From Prevotella sp. (GTDB taxonomy: Bacteria; Bacteroidota; Bacteroidia; Bacteroidales; Bacteroidaceae): 64,000 nt of DNA. The position numbers and the translations under genes were made by a program. The stretch is from assembly GCA_052173735.1 (NCBI GenBank), contig JBQMYA010000001.1, forward strand, positions 28,784-92,783, written 5' to 3'. Below, piece by piece: positions 627 to 51,725 of the stretch (its first letter is position 1; each line of letters begins with the position of its first letter). Under the pieces are notes generated by a model. The model was given only the letters and a program-made list of their open reading frames with translations, was not told where the DNA came from and did no database searches.

Positions 627-714
627 CAAAAGCACTGTTATTGCATGCTAAAAGCAGTGAGTTTACACTCTAAAAGCATTGAGTTTAGGCATCAAAAGCA
701 GTGTTATTGAAATG
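627..714. repeat. 22-bp tandem unit block A (4 units, 88 bp)
   Basis: caaaagcactgttattgcatgc / taaaagcagtgagtttacactc / taaaagcattgagtttaggcat / caaaagcagtgttattgaaatg, in exact 22-bp register. Starts 22 nt from the sulfatase ATG. Confidence 0.9.
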
Positions 715-1110
715 TGATAGTGGTGCAAATGTAATCATTTGCTTTTAGATATACAAACGAAAGGAACGAAAAAAGAATGCAGGTCATAACCACATTATAA
801 GTGGAAGACTTTTATAATCGTTTATTTCTTGTTATGTTCTATAAATTATTCACAATGAAACGTTAACAATAAAGCATTTCTGCTCTTTATTTCTTTCCCA
901 CTTTCTCTCTATAATTATAAAGACGATATTCACTCTACCTACATCTTTCTTTATGAGTTTTAACAGGACGTTAAAACCCAATTATACTTTTTATAGACAA
1001 GTCTTTCTATCCCACTTCTATATATAATATAAGGTGTTAAACACTTATAGCATTTTTATTCTTTCCCAACCAAATAACCCTTACACAACAGCCATAACTG
1101 CCTCACTATT

Positions 1111-1198
1111 TAAAAGCATTGAGTTTACGCCCTAATAACTATGCTTTTACACCACAAAAGCAATGTAATTAGAAAGCAATAGCAATGCTTTTGCAACA
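1111..1198. repeat. 22-bp tandem unit block B (4 units, 88 bp)
   Basis: taaaagcattgagtttacgccc / taataactatgcttttacacca / caaaagcaatgtaattagaaag / caatagcaatgcttttgcaaca. Confidence 0.9.
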
Positions 1199-1250
1199 AA
1201 AAAAATAAATAAAAAAATGGTTTATATAAACAATGTTTGCAATAAATAAC

Positions 1251-1258
1251 TATCTTTG
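1251..1258 (+). promoter_or_regulatory. Bacteroidetes-type -7 promoter box (TAnnTTTG) for the GH32 gene
   Basis: TATCTTTG ends 36 nt before the ATG at 1295. Confidence 0.5.
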
Positions 1259-1294
1259 TTCATATCAAAGCAATACATTTAAAATAGAATCAAT

Positions 1295-2980
1295 ATGGAT
1301 AACCGACTAAAAACATTAGCACTCTGCATGCTTTCAAGTGCTACTCTTGCTTATGCTCAAACCTTTTTAAGCGACACTCAGGCAATGAAGCGCATTCAAA
1401 CCACCCATAAATATGTTTTACTTCCTGTGGAAGAGAGCGAAAATTTGGCGCATATCCGTATCATTAAGGATAATAATGTGGTGAAAGAATTCAACTGTAA
1501 GCTTGCAGTGAACAAGGTAGACTATTCTGTTCCGCTTGATGTTAGCGAGTTTGGAGGCGATGTTTTGCTCGATATTCAATTCACTGGAGAAAAGAAAAAT
1601 ACTGGTTCTATCCATTATTTCACTTGTTGGAAGGAATTGAAAGAAACCAATTCGTTCGACACTTCCAATCGTGAAAAGTACCGACCACTATACCATCACA
1701 CTCCACCTTATGGTTGGATGAACGACCCTAACGGCATTTTTTATAAAGATGGAGTGTGGCATTTGTACTTTCAATATAATCCATTTGGATCTCAATGGGA
1801 AAATATGAACTGGGGACACAGCACTTCTCGTGACCTAATTCATTGGACTTACGAGGGAGTTCCCATTCAACCCGACGCACTTGGCGTGATTTATAGCGGT
1901 TGTTGCGTTGTAGATAAAGACAATGTAGCTGGCTTTGGCAAGAATGCAGTGATTGCTTTCTACACATCGGCAGGCACTTCGCAAACTCAAAGCATTGCTT
2001 ATAGCCTCGACAACGGCAAAACTTTCACTAAATATGCGGGCAACCCCATTGTAACAAGTAATGTTCCCGACTTTAGAGATCCTAAAGTTTTTTGGAACGA
2101 AGACACCCAATTGTGGAACTTAATTCTTGCTGCTGGACAGCAAATGAGCATCTATTCGTCTAAAAATCTAAAGGATTGGACCTTTGAAAGCCACTTCGGA
2201 GAAGGCTATGGCAATCATGATGGAGTGTGGGAATGCCCCGATCTAATCAAAATGGACAACAAATGGGTGCTTCTTTGTAACATTAACCCTGGCGGACCCT
2301 ATGGAGGTAGCGCAACACAGTATTTTGTTGGGCAGTTTGATGGACACAAATTCACTTGCGAATCGGCACCAACTGTAACCAAATGGCTCGACTATGGCAA
2401 GGATCAATATGCCACTGTCACTTTCAATAACGCCCCTAATGGCAGAATAGTAGCCATTCCTTGGATGAGTAATTGGCAATATGGCAACCATGTTCCAACG
2501 CTTCAGTTTCGCTCTGCCAATGGTCTTCCTCGTGAACTCGGGCTATTTAGCTATCAAGGCGAAAGCTATATCAGTGTGAAACCCTCGCCCGAAGTATTCA
2601 AAGCATTTAGCAATAAAACTTCAGCTAAACTGCAACCCGCCTCTTATGTCGAAGTAACCAACATCAAAGGCAATGCAAGTATCACCTTAAAGAACAACCA
2701 AAACGAAGAGGTTGTGATGGTTTACGATGCCAAGAAGGGCACTTTCAGCATGGATAGGAACCAAAGTGGAGTGTCAGAGTTTAGCTCTGAGTTTAAAGCT
2801 GTTACCACTTCGCCCACCTATGGCGCAATTAGTGGTTTGCAAATCTTTGTAGATAAGAGTAGTGTTGAGGTGTTCGACGTAGACGGAAAGATGGCTATGA
2901 CGAACATAGTGTTCCCTACTTCACCTTATACCGACGTGGTTACAAAGGGCTGTAAGGTTAAAATTCATGCTTTAAAATAA
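1295..2980 (+). CDS. Glycoside hydrolase family 32 (beta-fructofuranosidase / exo-fructanase) with signal peptide and N-terminal extra domain
   Basis: 561-aa ORF with GH32 catalytic motifs WMNDPNG, FRDPKVFW and WECPDL. Signal peptide MDNRLKTLALCMLSSATLAYAQ. About 115 aa precede the catalytic domain, as in Bacteroidales GH32 enzymes. Confidence 0.92.
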   Translation: MDNRLKTLALCMLSSATLAYAQTFLSDTQAMKRIQTTHKYVLLPVEESENLAHIRIIKDNNVVKEFNCKLAVNKVDYSVPLDVSEFGGDVLLDIQFTGEKKNTGSIHYFTCWKELKETNSFDTSNREKYRPLYHHTPPYGWMNDPNGIFYKDGVWHLYFQYNPFGSQWENMNWGHSTSRDLIHWTYEGVPIQPDALGVIYSGCCVVDKDNVAGFGKNAVIAFYTSAGTSQTQSIAYSLDNGKTFTKYAGNPIVTSNVPDFRDPKVFWNEDTQLWNLILAAGQQMSIYSSKNLKDWTFESHFGEGYGNHDGVWECPDLIKMDNKWVLLCNINPGGPYGGSATQYFVGQFDGHKFTCESAPTVTKWLDYGKDQYATVTFNNAPNGRIVAIPWMSNWQYGNHVPTLQFRSANGLPRELGLFSYQGESYISVKPSPEVFKAFSNKTSAKLQPASYVEVTNIKGNASITLKNNQNEEVVMVYDAKKGTFSMDRNQSGVSEFSSEFKAVTTSPTYGAISGLQIFVDKSSVEVFDVDGKMAMTNIVFPTSPYTDVVTKGCKVKIHALK

Positions 2981-3092
2981 TCGTTCTTGCTCTCCAACTC
3001 AATCATTCTGCATGCTTTATGCACTGCTATGGGGTTTGAAGAGCGCAAGAATACGGAAACAAAAGAATTGAATAAACAACACAAATCTAAAT

Positions 3093-3977
3093 ATGAAGAA
3101 TGTAATTGTTGGCTTAGGTGAGGCCCTATGGGATTGCCTTCCTGATGGAAAGAAGCTGGGTGGAGCCCCTGCAAACTTTGCTTATCACACCGGACAGTTT
3201 GGACTTAACACCCTTGCAGTTAGTGCTCTTGGAGAAGATCCCTTAGGAACTGAAACGCTTGAAGAATTGAAAAGCAAGGGAATTAACTATCTTATGCCCC
3301 TTGTAGACTATCCTACTGGCAGCGTACAAGTGGAACTTGACAATGCAGGTGTACCCACATACGATATTAAAGAGGGCGTTGCTTGGGACAATATCCCTTT
3401 TACTCCTGAGCTAGAAGAAGTGGCTAAGCATTGTAGTTGTGTGTGCTTTGGATCGCTTGCTCAACGTAGTAGCGTGAGTAGACAAACCATTCAGAAGTTT
3501 GTTGAAGCCACTCCTGAGTCGTGTTTGAAGATATTTGACATCAATCTACGCCAAAACTTCTACACAAAAGATATTATATGCAATTCTTTAAAGCAAGCTA
3601 ATATCTTAAAAATCAACGACGAAGAGCTGGTAACGATTGGTAGATTGTTTGGCTATCCCGGCTTAGATATGGAGAATAAGTGCTGGTTATTGCTCGGAAA
3701 ATATAACTTAGACATGCTCGTTCTCACATGTGGTGTCAACGGATCTTATGTCTTTGCGCCCAATCTTTTATCGTTTAGAGAGACTCCTAAGGTTGAAGTT
3801 GCCGACACAGTAGGCGCTGGTGACTCGTTTACAGGAACCTTTGCGGCGGCTATTCTCAATGGAATAGCTATTCCAGAGGCGCACCAATTGGCAGTAGAAG
3901 CAAGTGCCTTTGTTTGCACTCAGCATGGAGCTATGCCCCAATTCCCTAAAGATTTGATTGATAAGATTAAGAAGTAA
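3093..3977 (+). CDS. Fructokinase (PfkB/ribokinase family carbohydrate kinase)
   Basis: 294-aa ORF. N-terminal GLGEALWDCLPDGKKLGGAPANFAYH and C-terminal GAGDSFTGTF motifs of PfkB kinases. Lies directly downstream of the GH32 gene. Confidence 0.85.
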   Translation: MKNVIVGLGEALWDCLPDGKKLGGAPANFAYHTGQFGLNTLAVSALGEDPLGTETLEELKSKGINYLMPLVDYPTGSVQVELDNAGVPTYDIKEGVAWDNIPFTPELEEVAKHCSCVCFGSLAQRSSVSRQTIQKFVEATPESCLKIFDINLRQNFYTKDIICNSLKQANILKINDEELVTIGRLFGYPGLDMENKCWLLLGKYNLDMLVLTCGVNGSYVFAPNLLSFRETPKVEVADTVGAGDSFTGTFAAAILNGIAIPEAHQLAVEASAFVCTQHGAMPQFPKDLIDKIKK

Positions 3978-3997
3978 ACAATAATTACAAACAAAAA

Positions 3998-4045
3998 AAA
4001 TCCTCTATTTACACCCTTTGATGTAAGTAGAGGATTTCTTTTATC
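3998..4045 (+). terminator. Rho-independent terminator after the fructokinase gene
   Basis: The 10-bp stem AAATCCTCTA / TAGAGGATTT has a 20-nt loop and a T-rich tail TCTTTTATC. It lies 20 nt after the stop. Confidence 0.6.
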
Positions 4046-4146
4046 TCTTTTAAAACACTATTAACAAGGCTCTTCGTTGTTCTTCACAAACAAGTTACAG
4101 CCGTTGTAGAATGTGGTTTCTTTATCGTTAAAACCCGATAAGAGGC

Positions 4147-5094
4147 TTATTTCTTTTTCTTTGGTTGTGCCTTCACTTCCACTGGTTCTTGTTTTGCACC
4201 GCTATCTTCAATTCTTACCAATTCAACATCAAAGATAAGGGTTGAATAAGGCTTAATTGCAGGAGTTGGAGAGCTTGCTCCATAGGCTAATTCTGCAGGT
4301 ATAAACAATTGCCATTTACTTCCTACTGGCATCATTGTAAGGGCTTCTGTCCAGCCTTTAATTACCTGACTTGCTCCGAATGTGGTTTCTTGTGGATTGC
4401 GTTTGTATGAGTTGTCAAACTCTGTTCCATCGATTGTGCGACCAACATATTTCACAGTTACCATGTCGTTTGCCTTTGGAATAGCACCATTTCCTTCTGT
4501 AATCACTTTATATTGCAAACCACTTGCAGTTGTTTTCACACCTTCTTTGGTTGCATTATCCTTCAACCACTTTTCGTTCTCACTCTTAATTGCAGCCTGT
4601 TTTCTTTCTTCATTAGCCTTATAAAAGTCGCTAAAGTATTTTTCTGCATTGTCGAAAGTGAACAATGTACTATCTTTTAGCACGCCAGCAACAAATCCTT
4701 GATAGAAAGGATCAAGTGAAAGACTATCTGAAGAATCTTTAAATGCATTGCGAGTTGTTGGAAGAACTTGGTTTTGAACTGTGCCAAACACTGCTACTCC
4801 TGCATTATATGCACTAAAAGCTTTATCGCCTTGCTTTAAACGAGCATCTTTAAAACCTTGCACAAAAGCAGCTAAATCGCTTTCGGTTAAGCCATATTGT
4901 CCTTTAAGATACTCCATTAAATGACCTGTTGAGAATAAACCAGAAGCATAACTCAACGAGTCTGCACGAGAAGTTAGGGTTACTACGTTTGCTGTAGCTT
5001 TGTTCTTCTTATTTATTTTGTTTTTGTTTGCTGCACTCATTGTTGTTGCAAAACCAAAAAGAAGCAAGCAAGCTATTAGTATTGTCTTTTTCAT
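4147..5094 (-). CDS. FKBP-type peptidyl-prolyl cis-trans isomerase, secreted (FkpA-like)
   Basis: The ORF track starts at 5151, but the internal Met at 5094 gives a normal signal peptide MKKTILIACLLLFGFATTMSA. C-terminal FKBP domain (GLQYKVITEGNG...VIKGWTEAL...LIFDVELV). Confidence 0.88.
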   Translation of the reverse strand: MKKTILIACLLLFGFATTMSAANKNKINKKNKATANVVTLTSRADSLSYASGLFSTGHLMEYLKGQYGLTESDLAAFVQGFKDARLKQGDKAFSAYNAGVAVFGTVQNQVLPTTRNAFKDSSDSLSLDPFYQGFVAGVLKDSTLFTFDNAEKYFSDFYKANEERKQAAIKSENEKWLKDNATKEGVKTTASGLQYKVITEGNGAIPKANDMVTVKYVGRTIDGTEFDNSYKRNPQETTFGASQVIKGWTEALTMMPVGSKWQLFIPAELAYGASSPTPAIKPYSTLIFDVELVRIEDSGAKQEPVEVKAQPKKKK

Positions 5095-5187
5095 TTGAAT
5101 AAAAAAATTAAATATAAAGAATAAAATTTCGATAAGATTGGTAAACAACAACTTACCTTTTTTATAGGAGTTATTATATTTTAAAAT

Positions 5188-5215
5188 AGGGACAGATGTA
5201 AAAGTATCTGTCCCT
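5188..5215 (-). terminator. Hairpin between two FKBP genes (possible terminator)
   Basis: AGGGACAGAT / ATCTGTCCCT is a 10-bp stem with an 8-nt loop. The minus-strand tail ATTTTAAAAT is only moderately U-rich. Confidence 0.4.
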
Positions 5216-5240
5216 TTTATTCTTTTTATAGAATGATTGA

Positions 5241-6116: not shown

Positions 6117-6190
6117 TTTGATATAATTGTTTTTTATAGTTTATTGCTTTATTTTCTTTATAAAAATGCTCTTTTATTGCTGTTGGGCGA

Positions 6191-6796: not shown

Positions 6797-6950
6797 AATT
6801 GTTTATAAATCGTATTATATTTATTTGTTTTCTTGTTTCGTTTACTAAGTCTTTGCAAATCAACATCTACAAAGCTGTCTTATCTGTTGTTTGCACTGGC
6901 ACGCAAAAGGTAGTGCATTGAATCTATTCGTTGCACCACATAGTTATATG

Positions 6951-6958
6951 CAAAGTTA
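6951..6958 (-). promoter_or_regulatory. -7 box (TAACTTTG on minus strand) upstream of the FKBP gene at 6796
   Basis: Plus strand reads CAAAGTTA. It lies about 155 nt upstream of the ATG. Confidence 0.35.
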
Positions 6959-7058
6959 ATCTTTTTATTCGTTCCACCATCTATTAATATCACTATTTTT
7001 GTTTTTTTGTGCCTTTACTCTTATTTATTTACAAAAAGGGTGCCATAAAACTACAAAA

Positions 7059-7146
7059 CAAAAGCTATGTTTTTGCATTATAATAACATTGCTTTTGCAT
7101 TCGAAAAGCATTGAGATTGGTTGCTAAAAGCATTGCTTTTATTTGG
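7059..7146. repeat. 22-bp tandem unit block C (4 units, 88 bp)
   Basis: caaaagctatgtttttgcatta / taataacattgcttttgcattc / gaaaagcattgagattggttgc / taaaagcattgcttttatttgg. Confidence 0.9.
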
Positions 7147-7501: not shown

Positions 7502-7527
7502 CATATAACAATCATACTCAAAGCGAC

Positions 7528-8538
7528 ATGAAAGAAAGCTCACAAATCGACGTTGCCGTATTACTTATCTTCTTTAATCGCCCCGAAAAGTTTAAAGAAG
7601 TGTTTGCTCAAGTGCAGAAAGCCAAACCCTCGAAGCTCTTCCTTTATCAAGACGGAGCACGACATTCGGGTGATATTGAGGGCATAGAAGTATGCAGAAA
7701 CATTGCAAGCGAGATTGATTGGGAGTGCGAAGTACATCAACTTTATCAAGAAAAGAACTATGGTTGCGATCCTTCTGAGTTCATTGCACAGCGTTGGGCG
7801 TTCTCGTTTGTAGACAAATGCATCGTTATAGAAGACGATGATGTGCCCTCATTGGCATTCTTTCATTTTTGTAAAAGCATGCTCGACAAGTATGAAAACG
7901 ACCCTCGAGTGTGGATGATTGCAGGCTTTAATGCCGAAGAAAAGACCGAAGACATAACACAAGACTATTTCTTTACATCCATATTCTCAATATGGGGATG
8001 GGCATCTTGGCGTCGTGTTATTGACCAATGGGACGAACATTACACCTTTTTAAACAACAAAGAAACCCTTTCTTTGCTCACCAATTTAGTGAAAGAGCGC
8101 AATGTTCGCAACGATTTTTTAGCCATGTGCCACCGCCATAAGCAAACAGGTAAGGCGCACTACGAAACTATTTTCTGGGCATCGATGTTGCTCAACAACG
8201 GCTTAGCCATTATGCCTACACTCAACTTAGTGAACAATATAGGTGTAACAAGCAACTCAACGCACTTCACAGGATCAACAAACACGCTGCCAAAGAGCAT
8301 TAGAAAGATGTTCACCATGCAACGATTCGAACCCAAGAGCTTCGACAATCACCCCCAATACATCATAGAACACACGGCATACAAAGACCGCATTTATCGT
8401 ATGAACGCATGGAACAACCCCACAATAAAAGTAAAATATAGCTTAGAAGAATTGTGGTTGAACTTGCAAAGAGGTAATTTTTCGACAATCAAAAATGCTC
8501 TTGGCAAACGAATTAAAAAGTGGTTGAAAATAAATTAG
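7528..8538 (+). CDS. Putative GT-A fold glycosyltransferase (GNT-I / HlpA-like family)
   Basis: 336-aa ORF. N-terminus VAVLLIFFNRPEKFKEVF and acidic EDDDV motif resemble GNT-I-like bacterial glycosyltransferases. Family assignment is from memory only. TATCTTTG box lies 27 nt upstream. Confidence 0.6.
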   Translation: MKESSQIDVAVLLIFFNRPEKFKEVFAQVQKAKPSKLFLYQDGARHSGDIEGIEVCRNIASEIDWECEVHQLYQEKNYGCDPSEFIAQRWAFSFVDKCIVIEDDDVPSLAFFHFCKSMLDKYENDPRVWMIAGFNAEEKTEDITQDYFFTSIFSIWGWASWRRVIDQWDEHYTFLNNKETLSLLTNLVKERNVRNDFLAMCHRHKQTGKAHYETIFWASMLLNNGLAIMPTLNLVNNIGVTSNSTHFTGSTNTLPKSIRKMFTMQRFEPKSFDNHPQYIIEHTAYKDRIYRMNAWNNPTIKVKYSLEELWLNLQRGNFSTIKNALGKRIKKWLKIN

Positions 8539-8852
8539 AGCATCTTTACCTTTTCAATATCGTCTTTTAGGACTATAATACGAAATCTTTTCATTTTAAA
8601 TGAGCGTTCTTTTAGAGTTCAACCTCATACAAATCCATCTAAAAGAATCGGTATTTCATTTTCTTTTTCCATAAAAATTAGGTCTAGAAGGGCATCATTT
8701 TATACCACATTAAAATAAGAATACAGATATAAGAGTATGCGCTTTGCCATGGAAAAACAGGAAGATAGAAACAAGAGGACATTGAGAATTGGTTGAAAAT
8801 TGTTTACAGCCAAAGGATGAAAGCGACAAGTTCCAAACTGAAAAATGCCGCT

Positions 8853-8896
8853 TTCGGTGTTTAACATGATATGTTAAATGCCTTCAGAACACCGAA
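8853..8896. other. Nested dyad symmetry in a gene-free region
   Basis: Outer arms TTCGGTGTT (8853-8861) and AACACCGAA (8888-8896). Inner palindrome TTAACAT-gat-ATGTTAA (8861-8877). Confidence 0.35.
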
Positions 8897-9680
8897 TCTA
8901 AGATTTCATCTCTTGCGAGTTATCCTACAAATAAGCCTCTTTGTTTTGCAACATTGATAGCCATTGCTTTTCAATTCGATGTCGTCGATATCTCGATTTA
9001 TTAAGACTTGCAGGATTGATTACCTGCTTTTTTGTTTTTCTAATAAACTGTTTACAACAGTCTTGCTTTCGTTTTGCAACTCAAGCAATTTTCTTTTTCA
9101 ATTCTGTTCTGTGGATTTCGATTGATGATTGTATAGCTTTCACAACCTAAAACCAGCAAAAACAGCTTGTTACGAGCCTTTAACAATCTTTCTTCCTAAT
9201 ATTCTTTTTTCATTAAACTCAAAGCTTTTGCCATCTTCTCAAATGTCTTTTTGAAATAAGAGTCTGTGTGTTTCATGATAATTGTTACTTATTTTTTATT
9301 GACTTTTTATGTCCTTTTGGTTCCACTTTTTACAAAAATAGGAATAATAAATATATAAAGCAATTTTTATTTACATTATTTTATACTTTACATATTATTT
9401 AAATTATTAGCATCTATTTTCACTATTTAAAGACATTCTACTAACACATTAGGTATAATGAGGCTATAAGTATAATATATATAGATAAATCAAGCATATC
9501 AAGAAGATTTTTTTCGCCTAAAAAGAAGATATTATCAATTACCAAAATAGTAATAAAAGGACAAAATATAAACATATATTAACATTATCCCTTTAACAAT
9601 TCAGTCTTTAAACCACCACAATCATACTTTATTTTTAGATATTATCACACTTTTTATTTCGTCATTCATACTCTTTAAGT

Positions 9681-9688
9681 TACCTTTG
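9681..9688 (+). promoter_or_regulatory. -7 box TACCTTTG for the YidE/YbjL-type transporter gene
   Basis: Ends 25 nt before the ATG at 9714. Confidence 0.5.
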
Positions 9689-9713
9689 CACAGAATCATA
9701 CATAACAAATAGA

Positions 9714-14177: not shown

Positions 14178-14287
14178 CAAAAGGAATGGAAATGCGGTGA
14201 AAAAGCAGTGAGATTGCAGACCAATTGCAATGAGTTTGCACGCTAAAAGCATTGAGTTTACACACTAAAAGCAATGGAATTAGAAAC
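14178..14287. repeat. 22-bp tandem unit block D (5 units, 110 bp)
   Basis: caaaaggaatggaaatgcggtg / aaaaagcagtgagattgcagac / caattgcaatgagtttgcacgc / taaaagcattgagtttacacac / taaaagcaatggaattagaaac. Lies between two convergent genes. Confidence 0.88.
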
Positions 14288-19929: not shown

Positions 19930-20017
19930 CAAAAGCATTGTTATTAGATGATAATAACATTGATTTTATACTGCAATCTCAATGCTTTTGCACTGCAATA
20001 TCTATGCTTTTGTTTTT
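19930..20017. repeat. 22-bp tandem unit block E (4 units, 88 bp)
   Basis: caaaagcattgttattagatga / taataacattgattttatactg / caatctcaatgcttttgcactg / caatatctatgcttttgttttt. Confidence 0.9.
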
Positions 20018-25572: not shown

Positions 25573-25660
25573 CAAAATGATTGCTTTTTGTGTGCAATAG
25601 CATTGCTTTTACACAACAATACCAATGCTTTCACCTTGCAATAATACTGCTTTTTCTTTT
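25573..25660. repeat. 22-bp tandem unit block F (4 units, 88 bp; a weak fifth unit may lie at 25551-25572)
   Basis: caaaatgattgctttttgtgtg / caatagcattgcttttacacaa / caataccaatgctttcaccttg / caataatactgctttttctttt. Confidence 0.85.
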
Positions 25661-25815: not shown

Positions 25816-25867
25816 CAAAAGCAGTGTTTTTACTTTCGTTCTCAGCCCAAACTGCTTTTACCTTCAC
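25816..25867. repeat. Partial or degenerate 22-bp unit pair (block F')
   Basis: One good unit, caaaagcagtgtttttactttc, followed by a weak one containing cccaaactgcttttacc. Lies 156 bp right of block F. Confidence 0.4.
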
Positions 25868-28313: not shown

Positions 28314-30680
28314 TTATAACTTTATGTTTTGATTTCCTGCACCTTTGAAGGTTAATTTATAAACCTTTCCATTGCACTTCACATCTACCTTACCTGCTTT
28401 TAGGCTCTTAACTGCGATGGTTTTCACTGCACCTTGTTGCCAACTGAACGACACTTCGTATCCTCCTCGAGCCTTAATGCCGTTTACTTTACCACTTTTC
28501 CATGGCTCTGGACAAGCTGGAAGTAATTCTATCACACCGTCACCGCTTTGCAATAGCATTTCACAAACGCCTGCGGTGCCACCGAAGTTACCATCAATTT
28601 GGAATGGTGGATGGGCATCAAACAAGTTAGGATAAGTGCCTCCGCCACCCATTCTGTCTGCTCCTTTATAGCCATCTGGCGACACATAGCTCAAAAGTTT
28701 GCGGTAAACGTGATACGCTTGCTTGTTATCTCTTAGGCGAGCCCATAGGTTTATTCTCCAACCTGTACTCCAACCTGTTGTCTTGTCGCCTTTCATTTCG
28801 AGCGTTTTGCGTGCTGCTTGTGCAATAACAGGAGTTTCTTCGGGTGATAAATGGTGCCCTGGATAAAGTCCAACGAGGTGAGTTTGATGACGATGATGAA
28901 TGTCATAGTCGTCCCAATCATAGTACCATTCGTTCAAATCTCCATTCTTTCCAACGGTATAAGGGTGGAAACGCTCCACAGCTTGCAACAAATCGCGTTG
29001 CAAATCTTTATCAACTCCAAGAATTTCAGCAGCCTTTGCAGTGTTATTAAACAGCTCTCTTAATATCGCAAGGTCTGCCGTTCCACCATAACAGGTGGTT
29101 CCATGATAACCATCTGTTGAGGTAACATATTCGTTTTCGGGTGAAGTTGAAGGCGCAGTGATGATTTCTTGAGGATTTTTTGGATTGGGAATAATCCATT
29201 GAAGCATAAACTCTGAAGCCCCTTTCATCAATGGATAAGCCTCATTACGCAAGTAATTCACATCTTGATTGTATAGATAATGTTCCCAAAGTGAGCTCAT
29301 TAGCCATGCACCACCCATGTTCCAGTTTGCCCATTCGGGGCTTTCTCGCTTCTCTCCAACAGGGTTTGACATTGCCCAAATATCCGAATTGTGAGCCGCA
29401 CACCATCCTTTATTGATGCCATAGTAGTTCTTTGCGGTGGCAGAACCAGTGTCGGCAAGTCCTTTTAAGAATGTGTTAAGGGGCTGAAACATCTCTGAAA
29501 GGTTAGCAACTTCAGCGGGCCAATAGTTCTCTTCCAAGTTAATATTAACGGTATAGTTACTTCTCCATGGAGAGAAAAGACGCTGAGTCCATAGTCCTTG
29601 CAGGTTAGCTGGAACGCCTTTTGTGCGTGATGCTGAGATAAGAAGATAACGACCGAATTGGAAGTAGAGTGTTTCTAAATACTTGTTATCTTCTTTTTTG
29701 AGTGTATAGTCTTTCAATTGTTCTTCTGTTGTGCGCACATTGTCGATTGAACTGCCATCGAGTTGCAGAGAAACTCGCTTAAACAAGCGTTGATAGTCGG
29801 CAATGTGACGTGCTTTTATGGCATTGTAAGAACTTGCCAACACACCTTTCAAATCGCTGTTTGCCATCTCTTGATAAGGAGCACCTTGCAAAACGGGGTG
29901 TTTATCATATCCATTGAAACTGGTTTCGTTAACGATGTACACCACTGCTTCGGTGGCTTTGCTGATGGAAAGTGTGCTGTCTGTGGTTTCAACCGTTCCA
30001 CCTTTGTTCACAACATGCAACAAAGTGCAAAAGTGTATGCTGTTTTTTGCCTCGCCATGAGCGTGTCCTGTGAACTTAATGCCATTTTTAACGGCTTGCG
30101 CTTGATGTGGAATGAGGGCTGTAAGTTTGAGTTTACAACTGATTGATTGTGCCTTGCTGGCTGTTAAACGCATGGCAATAACCTTACTTGGGTTCGATAC
30201 AAACACTTCTCTTTGATACTTCACACCACCTTGTTCGTAGCTAATGAGCACGGTAGAGTTATCTAAATTGAGTGAACGTTTATAGTTTTTATATGCTTGT
30301 TGATTGCCATTTTCGAACAAAAGGGTTGCCAATGGTTGGAAATATTGTGAGTTAGAGCCTTGAACTTTTAGCTGTAACGAGTCTGCTAAACGATAGTTTT
30401 CATTGAAAAGTGCTTCTCTTATGGGTTCAATCCACTTGTGAGCGTCGGCATCAACGGTACGATCTACAGGCTTTCCTGTCCACAATGTGATGTCGTTTAG
30501 ATACATTCTGTCTTGTAAAACTCCTCCATAAACCATCGCACCGAGCTTTCCATTACCGATAGGAAAAGCCTCTTCGAAATACGATGCAGGCGTTTTAAAC
30601 CATACTTTTAAGGGGAGTTGCTGTGCCATTAGATGCAAAGCACAAGTCAACAGGGCTAATAATATAAGTTGTCTTTTCAT
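28314..30680 (-). CDS. Glycoside hydrolase family 95 (alpha-L-fucosidase-type)
   Basis: 788 aa. Signal peptide, N-terminal LKVWFKTPASYFEEAFPIGNGKLGAMVYGG. Conserved NINLEENYWPAEVANL and YPNLFDAHPPFQIDGNFG blocks characteristic of GH95. Confidence 0.9.
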   Translation of the reverse strand: MKRQLILLALLTCALHLMAQQLPLKVWFKTPASYFEEAFPIGNGKLGAMVYGGVLQDRMYLNDITLWTGKPVDRTVDADAHKWIEPIREALFNENYRLADSLQLKVQGSNSQYFQPLATLLFENGNQQAYKNYKRSLNLDNSTVLISYEQGGVKYQREVFVSNPSKVIAMRLTASKAQSISCKLKLTALIPHQAQAVKNGIKFTGHAHGEAKNSIHFCTLLHVVNKGGTVETTDSTLSISKATEAVVYIVNETSFNGYDKHPVLQGAPYQEMANSDLKGVLASSYNAIKARHIADYQRLFKRVSLQLDGSSIDNVRTTEEQLKDYTLKKEDNKYLETLYFQFGRYLLISASRTKGVPANLQGLWTQRLFSPWRSNYTVNINLEENYWPAEVANLSEMFQPLNTFLKGLADTGSATAKNYYGINKGWCAAHNSDIWAMSNPVGEKRESPEWANWNMGGAWLMSSLWEHYLYNQDVNYLRNEAYPLMKGASEFMLQWIIPNPKNPQEIITAPSTSPENEYVTSTDGYHGTTCYGGTADLAILRELFNNTAKAAEILGVDKDLQRDLLQAVERFHPYTVGKNGDLNEWYYDWDDYDIHHRHQTHLVGLYPGHHLSPEETPVIAQAARKTLEMKGDKTTGWSTGWRINLWARLRDNKQAYHVYRKLLSYVSPDGYKGADRMGGGGTYPNLFDAHPPFQIDGNFGGTAGVCEMLLQSGDGVIELLPACPEPWKSGKVNGIKARGGYEVSFSWQQGAVKTIAVKSLKAGKVDVKCNGKVYKLTFKGAGNQNIKL

Positions 30681-30801
30681 TGTTTAAGAGATTTATTGTT
30701 ACTAATTGAACTATTGAAGAATTGAGGTAGGTTTCTAAAAGGTTTCTCTTGCTTTCTATCCTCTTTTGTCGTTATCTTATAACGACTTTTTTCTTATCCT
30801 G

Positions 30802-30889
30802 AAAAAGCGATGTTATTGCACTGCAATAGCATTGATATTACCCATCAAAAGCAATGAGATTAGACCGCAAAAGCAATACTTTTAGATTG
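30802..30889. repeat. 22-bp tandem unit block G (4 units, 88 bp; degenerate fifth unit to 30911)
   Basis: aaaaagcgatgttattgcactg / caatagcattgatattacccat / caaaagcaatgagattagaccg / caaaagcaatacttttagattg. Confidence 0.9.
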
Positions 30890-30982: not shown

Positions 30983-33016
<2,034 letters not shown>

Positions 33017-33409
33017 TTAAACGATATAAAATGTGGCTAACTTTTTAGCAAATAAATTACATTTTACAGAGGTTTTTGTTGGTATAATTTTCTAGTCGCA
33101 AGATAATTTCTTCCCTTTTCACAAAAAAGTTTACTTTTTTTTCAGTAGTTTTTATTTTTTGAGTGCTATACTAATATAACTACTATAATAAAATTAACTA
33201 AAAATAAATTAGCGCAAAGCACTTTTTTGAATTTCAAAACAAATGAAAATAGAATTGATATATTGCAATATCATATTGCTTTTTATTGATATTTCATTAC
33301 AAAAGCTGCATTAAAAGCTATAAACAGAAAAATATTTTACTGCCAAACATTAAGCAGTAATGATAGAAGAAGACATTTTTTATTCAATACTAAATATATT
33401 TTAAGTTTA

Positions 33410-33450
33410 AAAGGGACCATGGTGCGTGAGCATAAAGGTCCTTTTTTTTT
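33410..33450 (+). terminator. Orphan plus-strand terminator-like hairpin with a 9-T run
   Basis: AAAGGGACC atggtgcgtgagcataa GGTCCTTTT TTTTT. No annotated plus-strand gene lies upstream. Confidence 0.5.
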
Positions 33451-33520
33451 ATTATTTTTATATCAAAAGATCTTTTAATCGACACTAAATCTAGATATAA
33501 AAATTGCATCAATCTGCTTG

Positions 33521-33528
33521 CAAAGATA
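33521..33528 (-). promoter_or_regulatory. Orphan -7 box (TATCTTTG on minus strand) inside the gyrB-upstream gap
   Basis: Plus strand reads CAAAGATA. No ORF lies downstream. It sits about 70 nt from the hairpin at 33410-33450. Confidence 0.3.
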
Positions 33529-33637
33529 AAAGAATATACCCAAAGAACAAAATAAAAGCTTTATTCCCCGCCTTATTTTAACATAAAAATTCTTTGTTTT
33601 TCAAATACAAAAGATGCTCCAATTGCTTTAAACTTAT

Positions 33638-34418: not shown

Positions 34419-34506
34419 CAAAAGCAACGTTATTACACCGCAATAGCAACGCTTTTTCGCCTCAAAATCAATGAGTTTGCAACCTAAAAGCAACATTATT
34501 GTAAGC
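34419..34506. repeat. 22-bp tandem unit block H (4 units, 88 bp)
   Basis: caaaagcaacgttattacaccg / caatagcaacgctttttcgcct / caaaatcaatgagtttgcaacc / taaaagcaacattattgtaagc. Confidence 0.9.
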
Positions 34507-39185: not shown

Positions 39186-39390
39186 ATTATCTATTCAAAG
39201 ATTTTTCTTTATCTATTTCAAAGCGTCTTTCTATCTTTTCTAAAGTAGAAACAAGTAGATTTAGAACGTTGATGCACTTTATTTATAGCGAACGAGAGAG
39301 AGATGCTGTTGCACACAGAAGGAGATTTAAAGTGAGATAAACCCCTTTTGTCGTTGCAAGCAACGTTATAAGCAGTTCAAAGGGGGCGAA

Positions 39391-40564: not shown

Positions 40565-40652
40565 CAAGCGCAATGCTTTTACCTGGCAATAGCAATGCTT
40601 TTATCCCTCAATTGCAACGCTTTTGCTCTTCAATATCAATGCTTTTACAAAC
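40565..40652. repeat. 22-bp tandem unit block I (4 units, 88 bp)
   Basis: caagcgcaatgcttttacctgg / caatagcaatgcttttatccct / caattgcaacgcttttgctctt / caatatcaatgcttttacaaac. Confidence 0.9.
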
Positions 40653-43808: not shown

Positions 43809-43819
43809 GATCTTAAAAT

Positions 43820-45148: not shown

Positions 45149-45216
45149 ATTCGTTCTTTGTGTTATATGATTCGTTTATAAACAGCCTATTCTAGGCTCA
45201 TCTCTTTCTTTTCGGT

Positions 45217-45678: not shown

Positions 45679-45681
45679 AAA

Positions 45682-46326: not shown

Positions 46327-46346
46327 TTCTTTTGAATTCTAATGTA

Positions 46347-47894
46347 TTAGTTGTAAGCTTGCCAATAGGGCTTTTGACGTAGAAGGTTGTTGGTGATATG
46401 TCCATCTCTATCTTGCCAAGCATCTTTAGGAAGTGGCAAGAATAGGGCACCATTCTTTATATCTTGTGGTGTGAGCAACTGGAATTTACCCTGCAACTCT
46501 TCCTTAATATAATTGTTTCGCACAATATCTGCATAGCGAGCATCATTCTCTCCGATAAATTCTTTCACTCTTTCGAGATATATAGCCTTCTTTAATCCCT
46601 CTGTATCGTATGTTGATGGATAGGTTAAAGCCCCTGCTCTTGTACGTATTGTATTCAAGTCTGTGGTTGCATCAGCAATATTTCCGAGCTTATTATTGCA
46701 TTCTGCACGCAACAAAATGATGTCTGCTAAACGCCAATAAACATAGTCTGCATCGATTGTTCTATAGCTTTTACCACTAGGAGAATACTGATCAGGATCC
46801 ATTATCGCCTTTCTGAACTTATACATGACTGCATATTCAATGCCGTTTGTTTCATGACTTTGATCGAACTGATAGAAAAACGCTTGCAAACGTTGGTCGG
46901 TTGCATCAGGAAATAAATTACTTATTGTTTGTTTATATAGACTAAATTGTGTACTTGTGGGCAAATCGGCTAATTGTTGGTCTTCTCTTACAGGCCAACT
47001 CACGTAATTTCGTGCAATTTCGTTAGGTGAAGTTACATCCGAAGAGCGCGTTTTGTCGAAGTAAAGACTAAATATTGCCTCTGGATTCTTTTTGCTAGGA
47101 TCAGATAAATATTCGCATAATTCCTCTGGAGTGCTACACAATTGATAAGTTCCTACTTGGTTATTAATGATAATAGAAGCATAGCTCACAGCATTTTTAT
47201 AATCCTCTTGTGCATTACCTTTAAGCGAATACAACTCTGTTACACTACCTCTCCAAGCATATAAGTGTGCCAATAGCGCAGCAGCAGTACCTTTAGAAGC
47301 AACTTGTCTGTTAGTTATTGTTGCACCATTTATATCCTTTAAGTTCTCATAAGTAGGCAACATATCGTATGCTTTCTTTGCATGTTCAATGGCAGTATTA
47401 AGCACTTCTTCTTGAGAAGATAATGAATAAGCTTTAATCGTACTCGAATTGTCTGTGATAATAGCTTCTCCATAACGTTGAGCAAGTATGAAATAAGCCA
47501 AACCTAAGCCAAATTCAGCTTGTCCTTTATGATAGTTTTCACGCTCAGTTGTTAATCCTTGCGTTCTATAAATATTATCTAATAAAAGATTTGACTCAAA
47601 TATTAAATCGTATAAGCCTTTCCATGAATACTCACTATTCATGATTGTGCGTGGGTTCCATTCACGAATTTGTGTTCCATCTAATAGTGCATCGGCTTTA
47701 ACTCCTGCCGAAGCGAATATTGAATTGGCACCTATTGTTGTATTAATATAAAATAGAATTGACGAAGTTGTGGTATTTAACTCTCGCTCACTTTCAAAAG
47801 AATTAGTGTATGTCAATCCATTTTCTGGTAATATATCTAGATTACACGATGCAAAGGTTAAGCCCAAAGCACCTATAAGCAATAATTTCTTCAT
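46347..47894 (-). CDS. SusD/RagB-family nutrient-binding outer-membrane lipoprotein
   Basis: 515 aa. Lipobox LTFASC. Helical TPR-like core ending with the typical …YWRLADIILLRAEC… and C-terminal …RQKPYWQAYN pattern. Lies immediately after a SusC-like gene. Confidence 0.9.
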   Translation of the reverse strand: MKKLLLIGALGLTFASCNLDILPENGLTYTNSFESERELNTTTSSILFYINTTIGANSIFASAGVKADALLDGTQIREWNPRTIMNSEYSWKGLYDLIFESNLLLDNIYRTQGLTTERENYHKGQAEFGLGLAYFILAQRYGEAIITDNSSTIKAYSLSSQEEVLNTAIEHAKKAYDMLPTYENLKDINGATITNRQVASKGTAAALLAHLYAWRGSVTELYSLKGNAQEDYKNAVSYASIIINNQVGTYQLCSTPEELCEYLSDPSKKNPEAIFSLYFDKTRSSDVTSPNEIARNYVSWPVREDQQLADLPTSTQFSLYKQTISNLFPDATDQRLQAFFYQFDQSHETNGIEYAVMYKFRKAIMDPDQYSPSGKSYRTIDADYVYWRLADIILLRAECNNKLGNIADATTDLNTIRTRAGALTYPSTYDTEGLKKAIYLERVKEFIGENDARYADIVRNNYIKEELQGKFQLLTPQDIKNGALFLPLPKDAWQDRDGHITNNLLRQKPYWQAYN

Positions 47895-47900
47895 ACTTTT

Positions 47901-50900
47901 TTAAAACTTTAGATTAACACCGAATGTGATTTTACGATTCAAAGGATATTGTGTTCCATCATCTTTTCCAGTGTAAGGATTGATAATTTCTGGGTCTAAA
48001 CCAGAGTAATTGGTTAACAAAAAGAGGTTTTCACCACTTAAATAAAGGTTGATATCTTTAATAAAGAATCCTTTAAGCCATTTTTGGGGTAACTGATAAC
48101 CAACTACTAGCTGTTTAAGACGAATAAAACTAATATTCTCTATATTTGAATCTACATTGCCATCGAACTGACCAATATAATCTTTATCAGCATAACGAAG
48201 TGAAGGATACTTAGCATTTGTATTGGTAGGAGTCCAGAAATCACTCTTATTAAAGCCATTCATAATCACTCCGAACTCTTTAGTAAAGGTGTAAGAACCG
48301 CCTTTATACATATTCATTACTTTTCTTCCAAGAGTATAACCAAATAGAATATCAATATTAAAGCCATTCCATTCGAGGTGAGAATTGATTCCTCCATACA
48401 CTGCTGGCAATGTACTTCCTGCATAATAAAGGTCTTTTTCGTCGATAACTCCATCAGAGTTTTGGTCCTTTATTTTTCTTCCTCCTACTCCTAGCGGGTT
48501 ATTTGCCGACTGAAAGTATAGCGGCATCAACTTACCTGTTGAGCTATAATAGGTAGGAACATCTTCTTCTCTTTGCACAATGCCCTCATCTTTATAGGTA
48601 TAAATACCATAAACGGGACGTCCAAGCACCTTATCATTAAGGTCTTCACCGTTATATGTCTTTCTTAACATATTGCGATTGTGACTTAAATTGAATCCAA
48701 CAGACCAATTGATCTTTTTATTACGAATCAAATCTGCTTGCATTTCGAACTCTATTCCTTCATTAGATATTGCTGAAGCGTTATCCCATACACGGTCTGC
48801 TAGAAAGACATTGCCTGGAAGATATGCTTGCATTAATAGCTTACTTGAGTACTTATAATAGTAATCTATTTTGAATTTAAGACGATAATCGAGCAACTGA
48901 AGGTCTAAACCTAAATCATATTGATCGCTTTCTTCCCATGTTAGCTTTTTATTTGCCATTGATTGAGGAATCACTCCCAATGTTCCATCAAACACATTAC
49001 TTTCTTGCATCACACCTAGAGCGATGTATGGTTCTTGGAACTTTTGTCCAGATTTACCCCAAGAGGCACGTAATTTACCAAAGCTTAGCCACCAAAGCTT
49101 TTTAAAATAAGGTTCTTCTGTGAACGCCCAACCTAGTCCAACAGATGGGAAAGTACCCCAACGCACATCTTTTCCAAACACACTTGAGCCGTCTGAACGT
49201 AGTGATAGTTCTGCAAGATATTTCTTTTTATAGTTATAAGCCACACGACCAAGGAAACTTAACATTGCTTGCTCTTCTTTATTTGCTAAGAATGTTTGTG
49301 CTGCTTTACCATCTTTTGTAAGAGTTGGCCATCCTTCTCCAGGATATTTCACTCTATTTGTTGGTCCTCCTTTAGCCGTTCCGCTAAGGTTTTGAAGTAA
49401 ATCATAGTTGTATGTCATACCAGCTAACAACTCTAATTTCTGATCATGAGGCAGATTTAGATTGTATGTAAGAAGATTTTCGGTTTGAGCACCAGTCATT
49501 GCAATATTCGAACCTTGTGCTTCAGACAACAAATCGTATTTTAGATAATTTGGAGTGAAGGTATAAATACGTGTAAAATAATGATCTAACGAGAATGTAG
49601 AAGTAAATTTCAAGCCTCTAAGAATTTGATAATTAAGTCCTAAACTCATTCTCATATTATAGTTAGAGTTGGTTTTATCAATTTCACGCAACTGTTTAAG
49701 AGCTTCTTTTTCTGCAATACTTCCTTTACCTGGAAGTAGAGTTGATGTTCGTTTTGGATCGAAAGTAAGACCTTGAACACGTCCCATATCCGAGCCTGCC
49801 TTTTGAGTTGTGTAGGTTAAGTTAAGTCTTGTAAAGAAGTTTAGCTTTGTAGATAGGTTAAAATCTAAATTTGTTAACAAACTATATCTACGGAAATTAG
49901 AGCTAATCATGATACCTGTTTCGTCATAAACGCCACCATTTACAAGATAACGCACATTTTCTGTGCCACCCGAAAGCTGTATGTCTGCTTTGGTAACACG
50001 TCCAACTCTAAACGCATATTTCCACCAATTGGTTCTATTATTATAAAAGGTATTGAGCGAGTCTTGTGCAATTGAAGGCAAACGTCTATCTCCTTCCACC
50101 ACATTACCATTTCTCCACAAATAGTCATAGGCTCCATCTCCATCAATATCCCAACCATATGAATCTTTATAAGATTTGGGATAAATCAGTTTATCGGTCA
50201 TATAATCATAGTGAGCACCACGCTGTTGCTTTGCCATTAGCAAGGCAATGTCTCTTTCTCCTTTACCTAATATCTGTGTAGGAGTACTTGGTAGCCATGA
50301 AAGCGATTGCGAAACGTTGATATTTACTTCCGACTTGCCTGCCTTACCCTTTTTAGTTGTAACCAAGATAACACCATTTCCTGCTCTCGAACCATACAAA
50401 GAAGCCGAAGCAGCATCTTTCAACACCTGCACACTCTCAATACTTGAGGGGTCTAAGCCCGACAATGGGTTGATACCTCCTGTGTTTTCAGAAGATCCAT
50501 TCGTTACAGGTACACCATCGATAACAAACAATGGACTTCCATCATTAACGCCTTTTTGGTTCAATGAGCTAAAACCACGAATCGTAATCTTTGATCCTCT
50601 ACCACCAGGAGAACCCGAAAGGTTACTAATATCCACACCAGCCATGCGACTTTGAAGAAGATTTTCCATGCTTGCCGATGGTGTTTTTTGAAGGTCTTCA
50701 GCCTTAACCGAAGCTATAGCACCCACCTGTTCACGGGTATTTCGTTTACCATAAGCAATAACCGACACCTCGCCCACCATATAAGCAGATGAAGGCAGGG
50801 TTACTGTTAACGATTTATTAGTATCGTATTTTATAGTTTTTGTTTCATAGCCCACGCTCGAAACAGTTACATCGCCATGCTCTTTGTTTACAAGAAGAGT

Positions 50901-51374
50901 AAAGTTACCATCCATATCGGCACTTGTTCCTACCGAAGTTCCTTTTATTTGAACAGTAGCAAGAGGAATACCACCACCATCTTTATCTTTAACAAAGCCT
51001 TTAAGGGTGTATTTACCTGCTGCATTCTTTTGCATTTTAAACACATTAATAGCTTTTCCTTCTACGCTATAGGTAAAAGATGTGCCCTTTAAAACACTTT
51101 GAACTGCACTCAACTCATCTACATTATCAAATGATATCGTAAGAGTTAACGAGTCGTTCTTCACATCATCGGTATAATTCACCTTGTACTCGCCTTTACT
51201 AGATAAGAAATCTAGAATGTAAGCAACGCTCTTTTCTTTAAACGAAATAGAGAAATTTTTGTTTAATACTTGTGCTCCTGCATTCAAAGGATTAGAAAAG
51301 GATAGGAGAACAGCATTAAATAAAAACAAGAAAAACAGATTTCTTGTTTTGTTTGATGCACTCTTTCTTGTCAT
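47901..51374 (-). CDS. SusC/RagA-family TonB-dependent outer-membrane transporter with N-terminal STN (signal-transducing) extension
   Basis: 1157 aa. After the signal peptide comes an STN-like segment ([30 protein letters not shown]…), then a carboxypeptidase-regulatory-like domain ([21 protein letters not shown]…), the plug (…[33 protein letters not shown]) and a C-terminal beta-barrel ending …FGVNLKF. Confidence 0.9.
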   Translation of the reverse strand: [1157 protein letters not shown]

Positions 51375-51475
51375 TAATGATTATTTTTTTGTTACGAAGT
51401 CTTGGTTTTATCTTATGGTATCACTACTGAAAGAAAAACCCAAAGAATTTCTTTAATATTAAAAATTTTCGCTTG

Positions 51476-51483
51476 CAAAAATA
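51476..51483 (-). promoter_or_regulatory. -7 box (TATTTTTG on minus strand) upstream of the STN-SusC gene
   Basis: Plus strand reads CAAAAATA. It lies about 100 nt upstream of the ATG at 51374. Confidence 0.4.
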
Positions 51484-51637
51484 CGAAAAAACTACAATAT
51501 CATATTATTTTCAATAAGAGATTATTCAAAATAATCGCCTTTTAATGTCTAAATTACACATTATTAATAGTAAAAAAGATAAATTGTTAAATACATCTTT
51601 TTGTCATTTGCAATTTAACAACCTTTTTTATTCTTTT

Positions 51638-51725
51638 CAAAAGTATTGCTTTTACAGCCTAAAAGCATTCCTTTTACACCTCAAAAACTATACTTTTTTA
51701 AGACAAAAGCACTGTTTTTACATAC
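51638..51725. repeat. 22-bp tandem unit block J (4 units, 88 bp)
   Basis: caaaagtattgcttttacagcc / taaaagcattccttttacacct / caaaaactatacttttttaaga / caaaagcactgtttttacatac. Confidence 0.88.

Follow-up and report, generated by a model that had tools for sequence, protein, structure and literature searches.

What are the short tandem repeats that recur in the larger intergenic gaps of a Prevotella chromosome, and what keeps them there? The question is raised by a 64,000-nt stretch of Prevotella sp. DNA (assembly GCA_052173735.1, contig JBQMYA010000001.1, forward-strand positions 28,784-92,783), referred to here as the window, in which a preliminary description made from the letters alone had noted ten dispersed blocks of 22-bp quasi-palindromic units. 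We find that these blocks have a rigid anatomy, that the frame of their units is under purifying selection, and that four-unit arrays of other sequence recur in related species. The reading that we prefer, with a probability of about 0.4, is that each block is a selected element of double-stranded DNA that would offer four phased dyad sites to a dimeric, co-evolving architectural protein.

All ten blocks could be re-read where they had been reported (Table 1), as 41 units in exact 22-bp register, with four units (88 bp) in nine blocks and five in the tenth; Tandem Repeats Finder called a period of 22 at 7 of the 10. A count matrix of the 41 units reproduces the consensus given earlier, YAAWAGCANTGMKTTTRCANNN, whose information adds up to 18 bits. 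A2 and A3 do not vary, and each of A5, C7, T10, G11, T15 and T16 is at least 90% conserved. Each unit is laid out as a 17-bp dyad, Y-AAWAGCA-N-TGCTWTT-R, followed by 5 bp that form a weak CA-N-TG dyad of their own, with balanced polarity (5' CA 66 times vs 3' TG 67 times in a larger data set). The idealised array can be written (CANTG-CTTTTG-CANTG-CAAAAG)n, a CANTG core recurring each 11 bp while T-tract and A-tract joints alternate. Because the units abut, with only these five semi-conserved bases between dyads, the blocks are not CRISPR arrays, as had been said from the start. The frame AANNNCANTGNNNTT occurs 28 times in the window vs 3.4 +/- 1.9 times in dinucleotide shuffles, none of 100 shuffles reaching 28; 26 of the 28 occurrences lie in blocks or in a solo unit and only 2 in coding sequence, so that this control, suggested in the preliminary description, came out in favour of the family. 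The solo unit accounts for what had been reported as a partial copy: it is one good unit with a degenerate remnant behind it.

As a frame the dyad holds up, whereas single units are poor palindromes, and here the earlier account of a palindromic core has to be qualified. Exactly one perfect AAAAGCA half is present in 30 of the 41 units and two perfect halves in only one, and the mismatch counts of a unit's two halves anti-correlate (r = -0.62, P < 2e-4, 41 units). The perfect half may lie left or right, with no fixed order along the block, and unit order differs among blocks. The proposal that the 88-bp block, and not the unit, is the copied entity is likewise borne out only in part: the variable positions of same-index units across blocks have an identity of 0.485, slightly above the 0.450 of units that differ in index (P = 0.0055), but blocks share neither flanks nor a fixed order of units. 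GTTATT does open the first units of blocks A, E, G and H.

Conservation in close relatives separates the frame from its surroundings. Loci and contigs of our collection are designated by L and a number; L093 belongs to a sister lineage that is syntenic with the window and 89% identical to it over 19 kb (11% diverged). All four blocks that it shares (D, E, F and G), and the solo unit too, are still at their sites, with no gain or loss; block D is kept as five units, and block F has an internal 1-bp indel. The identity of window and L093 is 0.949 (129/136) at the eight frame positions (AA, CA, TG, TT), 0.778 at variable dyad positions, 0.624 in the spacers and 0.807 in the intergenic flanks, compared to 0.958, 0.976 and 0.827 at codon positions 1, 2 and 3. 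The difference between frame and flanks has P = 5e-6. Purifying selection therefore acts on the frame, which is more conserved than both the flanks and third codon positions, and its strength is close to that seen at first codon positions. Block E, upstream of dapB, is near-identical in six metagenome contigs of the same species; among the matches listed, DapB itself is identical only in metagenome contigs, the next being 73-70% identical and those from named Prevotella or Segatella ~66%, which marks the source as an uncultured species of Prevotellaceae. Orthologs were also found of block C, with conserved flanks, in metagenome locus L171 and of block H in L106, and orthologous block pairs differ in length by 0-3 bp. 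No empty site for a window-type block was found when the flank pairs of 95 blocks were compared with all collected loci, a comparison that holds few orthologous pairs.

Some differences between the window and L093 may be recorded in their own right. The spacers (positions 18-22 of the units of blocks D-G) are 62% identical, below the flanks (81%) and third codon positions (83%), and one unit of block D is apparently shifted by one slot, so that single units may be turned over or converted while the block as a whole stays put. In addition, the GH95 gene of the window (28314-30680) is gone from L093 save for its last ~135 bp, window positions 28449-30713 corresponding to L093 positions 1408-1411; the junction of this loss lies ~90 bp from block G.

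The distribution of the blocks is that of an intergenic element with no preference for a kind of gap. In the window 10 of 10 blocks and the solo unit are intergenic, as the preliminary description had it, and its tally of gaps agrees with ours: exactly ten gaps exceed 300 bp, seven of them with a block, and two further blocks lie in gaps of 208 and 220 bp. This amounts to ~1 block per 6 kb. A larger set of 95 blocks across contigs, with rough calls of open reading frames (ORFs), gave the same picture, only 2 of the 95 overlapping a called ORF. Among 72 blocks that could be classified, 42 lie in tandem, 18 in convergent and 12 in divergent gaps, where ~37, ~17 and ~19 would be expected from the available gap length (51% tandem, 23% convergent, 26% divergent). 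In tandem gaps, block polarity is the same as that of the genes in 14 cases, opposite in 14 and ambiguous in 14, and the distance to start codons is broad in the larger set, with a median of 239 bp. As the counts stay near the share of gap length and no orientation bias is seen, the blocks are specific to neither promoters nor transcripts.

The architecture extends well beyond this species. We surveyed tandem repeats in at least 80 dapB loci of GTDB species representatives (among the matches listed) and in related contigs. In this set the commonest period is 22 (64 of 253 arrays, against 21 arrays of period 21 and five of period 44), a dominance that fits a constraint of two helical turns; periods 7 and 14 account for 32 and 18 arrays. 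Prevotellaceae-labelled loci carry 8.1 arrays of period 21-23 per 100 kb, with at least one array in 38 of 55 loci, and Bacteroides- or Phocaeicola-labelled loci 2.9 per 100 kb, none of more than three copies. When metagenome contigs were scanned for three consecutive CA-N-TG frames, which gave at least 120 loci, the matrix chains in the loci listed were of four units in 62 of 117 cases, three in 15, five in 6 and six in 2, with more than four in 8. Four-unit arrays were read directly in L009, L011, L015, L016, L030, L035, L036, L041, L048, L051, L067, L075 and L092. Thus, a length of four units persists from species to species, those with unrelated unit sequences included.

These unit sequences differ from lineage to lineage in a manner that resembles dialects. 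In L009, L094 and L007, whose DapB is 70-73% identical to that of the window, a like architecture stands upstream of dapB, with the core symmetrically changed to AAAAGCT-W-AGCTTTT; L009 and L094 have four units each, and L007 a longer degenerate run of ~8 unit lengths. The change, from GCA-N-TGC in the window to GCT-N-AGC in these three loci, includes the base pairs that flank the centre of the dyad, pairs that a hairpin loop would leave unconstrained. Elsewhere the unit is AAAGGCCACCTTTTGCACGCTA (L016), AAAGGCAGCCTTTTACACGG (L041), AAACGGnCCGTTTCGCA (L030 and L067), AAAAGATGACCTTTTACAAGCT (L015, Xylanibacter rarus), ATTACC-N6-GGTAAT (L035, Prevotella illustrans) or TCTGCCA-N6-TGGCAGA (L051), and the array of L036 (Segatella copri) is 4 x 23 bp. 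Further dialects in the metagenome loci listed are AAATTCAnTGAATTT, AAASTCAnTGASTTT and AAAACGCAnTGCGTTT. In L016, L011 and L067 the core is found in both orientations within a symmetric A-tract/T-tract frame, in line with the single perfect half that most units of the window possess.

Several observations made in the course of this survey stand beside the family. A detector of AA-N11-TT chains, tried across species, gave false hits in AT-rich DNA and missed arrays elsewhere, and no conclusion was drawn from it. Viral contigs gave six matches, of which five, in AT-rich contigs, are perfect tandem repeats unrelated to the family and the sixth (L219) is a four-unit block of the window type on a 17-kb contig of GC 0.34 catalogued as viral (IMG/VR UViG 7000000525_000093). 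With five of the six unrelated and only one of the window type, the family is not phage-borne. Runs of AACTCAN heptads occur directly upstream of the dapB start in relatives, and the same heptads adjoin the BrickBuilt-like element described below (consensus columns 1-110 of its alignment). Finally, L011 and L012 hold high-identity minisatellites unlike the window unit, one of 6.9 copies of a 22-bp unit (TTTCAGTAGTTAAAGAAGTTTC) and the other of ~4 copies of a 44-bp unit containing CCCTCCCTCGGGAGGG; those of L011 lie upstream of a DUF2851 gene, the gene that block J precedes in the window.

How might these features be brought together? In the reading that we prefer, a block would be a vertically inherited, selectively kept element of double-stranded DNA. 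Its four 17-bp dyad sites (Y-AAWNNCA-N-TGNNWTT-R), exactly 22 bp apart, would all face one side of the helix, where a dimeric sequence-specific protein may bind cooperatively as four adjacent dimers, resulting in a nucleoprotein complex of ~88 bp. With a block every 6 kb or so, and in intergenic gaps of every kind, this complex would have an architectural role (nucleoid, topology or boundary-like) and not a gene-specific one. The specificity of the protein could drift between lineages and the sites follow, giving rise to the dialects. The preliminary description had also put a protein-site array first and folding of a transcript second; the former, as four helically phased dyad sites, is in our judgement the best-fitting reading, given the strand neutrality, the selection on the frame, the symmetric core changes and the four-unit length, and the latter did not withstand the comparisons given below. 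A bolder form of the proposal, which we regard as conceivable though doubtful, is that Prevotellaceae chromosomes carry an unrecognised architectural code of hundreds of kept 88-bp platforms, about one per operon-sized interval and each holding four dimers of an abundant DNA-binding protein that co-evolves in specificity with all its sites, that they organise topology or insulate transcription, that their dialects behave like those of DNA uptake sequences (DUS), and that the BrickBuilt-type elements of Bacteroidales are mobile carriers of the same units.

A number of points weigh against the protein platform. The anti-correlation of half-sites is not predicted by a simple symmetric dimer, and an asymmetric unit placed in either orientation could be involved instead. 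One genome (L011) holds several unrelated 22-bp array families, and several proteins, or a constraint independent of sequence, would then be required. A sister dialect lies inside a dispersed ~700-bp element, which makes a mobile origin plausible. In part the frame, A/T tracts offset by half a turn from CA/TG steps, might be owed to the mechanics of DNA and not to the reading of bases. The gene calls behind the statistics on context are crude, and the binding protein is itself a prediction.

A mobile origin is the main rival to this reading. The blocks could be immobile descendants of repetitive extragenic palindromic (REP) sequences, of the bacterial interspersed mosaic elements (BIMEs) that these form, or of miniature transposable elements with inverted repeats (MITEs), related to the BrickBuilt repeats of Porphyromonas gingivalis, once spread by a transposase that recognised dyads and now of little or incidental function. 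Like REPs and MITEs, the copies are numerous, strictly extragenic and lineage-specific in sequence, their context is proportional to gap length, as neutral insertion predicts, and BrickBuilt too consists of spacer-less dyad units, of 23 nt, in intergenic DNA (PMC4596501). The sister dialect AAAACGCAcTGCaTTTAGCACC is enclosed, as 1-6 units, in an element of ~700 bp with a conserved leader of ~380 bp, a conserved tail of ~200 bp and 75-95% identity between copies, a candidate BrickBuilt-like MITE (Table 1). The unit type can, it appears, travel in a MITE; the window blocks do not look like one. An all-versus-all comparison of the 200-bp flanks of the ten blocks gave only two 13-nt chance matches and no terminal inverted repeats (TIRs), none of the ten junction pairs bears a direct repeat of 2-10 bp as a target-site duplication (TSD), and no leader or tail is shared. 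Neither the GTAG nor the CGTC tag of REPs is present in the 41 aligned units or the consensus, stem complementarity is not maintained, and domain annotation of the ~43 window genes found no transposase or integrase. The number of units is fixed at four where that of a mobile array would vary, and the order of units, which changes from block to block, shows that no single master was copied. The fast-evolving spacers, with units that look replaced or shifted, would suit a mobile past, but the lack of gain or loss at 11% divergence and a frame as conserved as first codon positions argue for current function and not for decay. We consider mobile descent with little function unlikely as a full account. 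The readings partly overlap, however, and most of the data would agree with an element that was mobile at first and later put to use by the host.

Could the DNA, or its transcript, act without a dedicated protein? In one such model ~88 bp of bendable or writhed DNA, with A/T tracts each 11 bp and flexible CA/TG steps half a turn away, would place plectoneme tips or wrap gyrase or HU, as has been proposed for BIME-2 and for A-tract clusters of E. coli. All dialects share A4/T4 tracts at 11-bp spacing with GC-richer or CA/TG cores between them, the blocks are strand-neutral and independent of gene context, most fall between the 60th and 99th percentile of predicted 88-bp bend, and their midpoints are spaced more evenly than in random placement among gaps of at least 150 bp (coefficient of variation 0.32, P = 0.005 in a post hoc test). 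Yet static curvature, calculated with three wedge models, is unremarkable and the signal weak, block C being predicted straight. In the dialect of L009 CT/AG stands in place of CA/TG while the dyad is retained, a change easier to reconcile with base readout than with mechanics; in other species the dyads come without A/T tracts (L035, L051), and neither G6/C7 nor the rule of one perfect half is explained. A pure shape element is therefore, to our mind, improbable. Folding of a transcript through AAAAGCA/UGCUUUU halves, as a leader, 3' stabiliser or small RNA, is more improbable still. Some blocks do give long hairpins (z down to -4.5 against dinucleotide shuffles), block A probably belongs to a 5' leader, four blocks occupy gaps that separate co-oriented genes and hold no TAnnTTTG box, and BrickBuilt regions are transcribed in P. 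gingivalis (PMC4596501). Against this, dyad positions are paired in 70.4% of cells vs 73.7% in shuffles, 499 of 500 shuffled sets equalling or exceeding the observed value. Covariation scores lower than the mean of the shuffles, complementarity at positions 4/14 and 6/12 is rarer than chance would give (P = 0.006 and 0.012), adjacent-unit pairing is at chance, and sets of four units drawn at random are no worse at folding than the actual blocks (-22.4 vs -21.7 kcal/mol). Blocks show no orientation relative to transcription, and 18 of the 72 classified lie between convergent genes. Hairpin models within the unit, between adjacent units and across the whole block were all rejected or found unsupported. 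A search of Rfam at gathering scores gave no match in the window and, in seven related loci (141 kb), only a tRNA. Least probable of all, and barely worth retaining, is a promoter-proximal enhancer (an UP-like element or array of activator sites) for the downstream gene. It would account for the six window blocks that end 70-130 bp from a start codon, for blocks B, C, F and J, which stand ~53-400 bp upstream of TAnnTTTG boxes, and for the TTTG of the units, which is like the -33 element; it would not account for the lack of enrichment in promoter-containing gaps (divergent 12 vs ~19 expected), for block D between two 3' ends, for block A downstream of a -7 box, or for the broad distances to start codons. 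On the gap-class statistics and the positions of the TAnnTTTG boxes we reject a promoter or UP-element model. Nor are the blocks Bacteroidetes promoters (-33 TTTG / -7 TAnnTTTG) themselves: unit spacing cannot yield the 19-21-bp gap between the two elements, the -7 box is outside the block in most block-bearing gaps, and only one box lies inside any block (51645).

Positions and settings are collected in Table 1. The window genes are ordinary chromosomal ones, among them gyrB, ruvB, dapB, dut and genes for signal peptidases, FKBP isomerases, glycoside hydrolases and SusC/D pairs, and the neighbours of the blocks are functionally unrelated to one another. Block A, which lies between a -7 box and a start codon, is for that reason probably in the 5' leader of the sulfatase-like gene. 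The four blocks in gaps between co-oriented genes without a TAnnTTTG box are E, G, H and I. Intervals between blocks are 5.9, 7.1, 5.7, 5.6, 5.2, 3.6, 6.1 and 11.1 kb in the window and 2-7 kb in other contigs.

Table 1. Blocks of the window, with other repeats and gaps recorded in the window and in related loci.
Feature	Position	Units	Setting or remark
Block A	627..714	4 x 22 bp; perfect left half AAAAGCA in 4/4 units	22 bp from start codon (605) of minus-strand sulfatase-like gene; downstream of TAnnTTTG box at 733
Interval between A and B	715-1110		396 bp within one divergent gap; AT-rich, without long ORF; minus-strand TAnnTTTG box at 733
Block B	1111..1198	4; perfect halves alternate L, R, L, R	ends 53 bp upstream of -7 box (1251) of GH32 gene (start 1295)
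Block C	7059..7146	4	divergent gap between FKBP gene (start 6796, minus strand) and gene starting at 7528
Block D	14178..14287	5	flanked by the 3' ends of a convergent gene pair (13859, 14573); gap lacks a promoter box and any convincing ORF
Block E	19930..20017	4	73 bp upstream of dapB (start 19857, minus strand), downstream of M23 peptidase gene
Block F	25573..25660	4	1-kb gap upstream of dUTPase gene
Solo unit	25816..25837	1; CAAAAGCAGTGTTTTTACTTTC, matrix score 22.6	degenerate remnant follows, to 25867
Block G	30802..30889	4	between gyrB terminator hairpin and GH95 gene
Block H	34419..34506	4	14 bp past stop of symporter gene, 107 bp before start of M15 peptidase gene
Block I	40565..40652	4; perfect right half in three	98 bp upstream of ruvB (start 40467, minus strand)
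Block J	51638..51725	4	divergent gap between SusC-like gene (start 51374, minus strand) and DUF2851 gene (start 51852); upstream of both -7 boxes (51483, 51821)
Unrelated 22-bp-period repeat	39188-39245	2.6 copies (TATCTATTTCAAAGAGTCTTCTC)	205-bp gap upstream of cytidylyltransferase-like gene
Gap >300 bp without block	8539-9713		1175 bp; no Rfam gathering-score match
Gap >300 bp without block	32957-33637		681 bp; no Rfam gathering-score match
Gap >300 bp without block	58037-58530		494 bp; no Rfam gathering-score match
Array in L009	9626-9713	4	upstream of dapB
Array in L094	~3541-3628	4	upstream of dapB
Window-type block in L219	5921-6008	4	contig catalogued as viral
AACTCAN heptad runs	L094 3870-4030; L009 9950-10000		directly upstream of dapB start
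Minisatellites	L011 5515-5665, 5724-5901; L012 19-143, 7473-7635		unlike the window unit
BrickBuilt-like candidate	L196 ~540-1240	1-6 AAAACGCAcTGCaTTTAGCACC units	also in L099, L105, L122, L134, L159, L160, L168, L176, L189, L192, L195, L198, L201 and L211; more than one copy on L189 and L198

To our knowledge, the chromosome biology of Prevotella and Segatella, dominant bacteria of gut, rumen and mouth, is almost unexplored. If the density in the window can be extrapolated, the element makes up ~1-1.5% of the genome and is present in the majority of large intergenic gaps; although its key positions are conserved like first codon positions, it goes unreported by annotation pipelines. Should the protein platform be real, it would imply an unknown abundant DNA-binding factor, and a natural system in which to follow the co-evolution of one protein with hundreds of sites; should the blocks instead be the domesticated core of a MITE, elements of the BrickBuilt type would be tied to an origin that spans the family. 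On the practical side, blocks are lineage-specific markers and are likely to break short-read assemblies, and they matter when promoters or intergenic insertion sites of Prevotella are engineered.

Do the blocks belong to any element already named? The preliminary description had recognised none, and this still holds: Rfam has no match, and a search of full-text literature turned up no account of four-unit 22-bp blocks in Prevotellaceae, BrickBuilt and PINSR being the only related descriptions (subscription-only literature lay outside the search). The element thus appears undescribed until now. BrickBuilt (Klein et al. 2015, PMC4596501) was reported from P. gingivalis and P. gulae only. It has a leader and tail of up to ~300 bp with IS5-like TIRs, target duplications in some cases, and an array that varies between strains from 1 to 22.8 units. 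It is like the blocks in belonging to Bacteroidales, in its spacer-less head-to-tail dyad units (23 nt, here 22) and in being intergenic, with tens of copies and no match in Rfam, a likeness drawn from its description and not from the unit sequence, which is published only as a logo (PMC4596501). The full layout of leader, variable array and tail is displayed by the sister dialect of metagenome contigs and not by the window blocks, which have no leader, tail, TIR or TSD, keep four units, are ~10 times denser and have an architecture found across many Prevotellaceae species. PINSR, described in Prevotella in 2016, has a 188-bp consensus and ~180 copies in one clade (PMC4755523). It too is intergenic and non-coding, has no TIRs and keeps about three quarters of its sites between strains, and as its consensus is published only as a figure (PMC4755523) the comparison is again one by description, in which PINSR may be a relative.

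With REPs, true stem-loops of 20-40 nt that carry a GTAG or CGTC tag and are linked to REP-associated tyrosine transposases (RAYTs; PMC3733652), and with BIMEs, both known from Enterobacteria and Pseudomonas, the blocks share short, species-specific dyad units that are often clustered, occur in either orientation, keep their positions between strains and have many extragenic copies (here 10 blocks in 64 kb). They differ in lacking the tag, in that stem complementarity is disfavoured and in that units abut at exactly 22 bp in fours, and there is no RAYT among the window genes. BIME-2 and BIME-1 are bound by gyrase and integration host factor (IHF), and thus are architectural protein sites. The defining features of REPs and of MITEs or BrickBuilt were looked for and not found, and for this reason we file the blocks under neither. 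The closest parallel in geometry may come from plasmids, where some origins hold four contiguous 22-bp iterons and centromere repeats can be 4 x 20 bp: tandem sites of about two turns, in about four copies, whose sequence varies while period and number stay, with the cooperative geometry of one helix face. The blocks show the same helical phase and small fixed number, with periods of 21-23 bp across species. Iterons, in contrast, are direct repeats beside a rep or par gene, at one locus per replicon, whereas the blocks are chromosomal, dyad-symmetric and dispersed about every 6 kb beside unrelated genes, apparently with no such linkage. In kind, then, the blocks are known, as clustered intergenic repeats of palindromic units, and there is a substantial chance that they mark a chromosomal protein-DNA system that has gone unrecognised. 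By analogy, they seem most like iteron or operator arrays in their geometry and most like BIMEs in their distribution over the genome.

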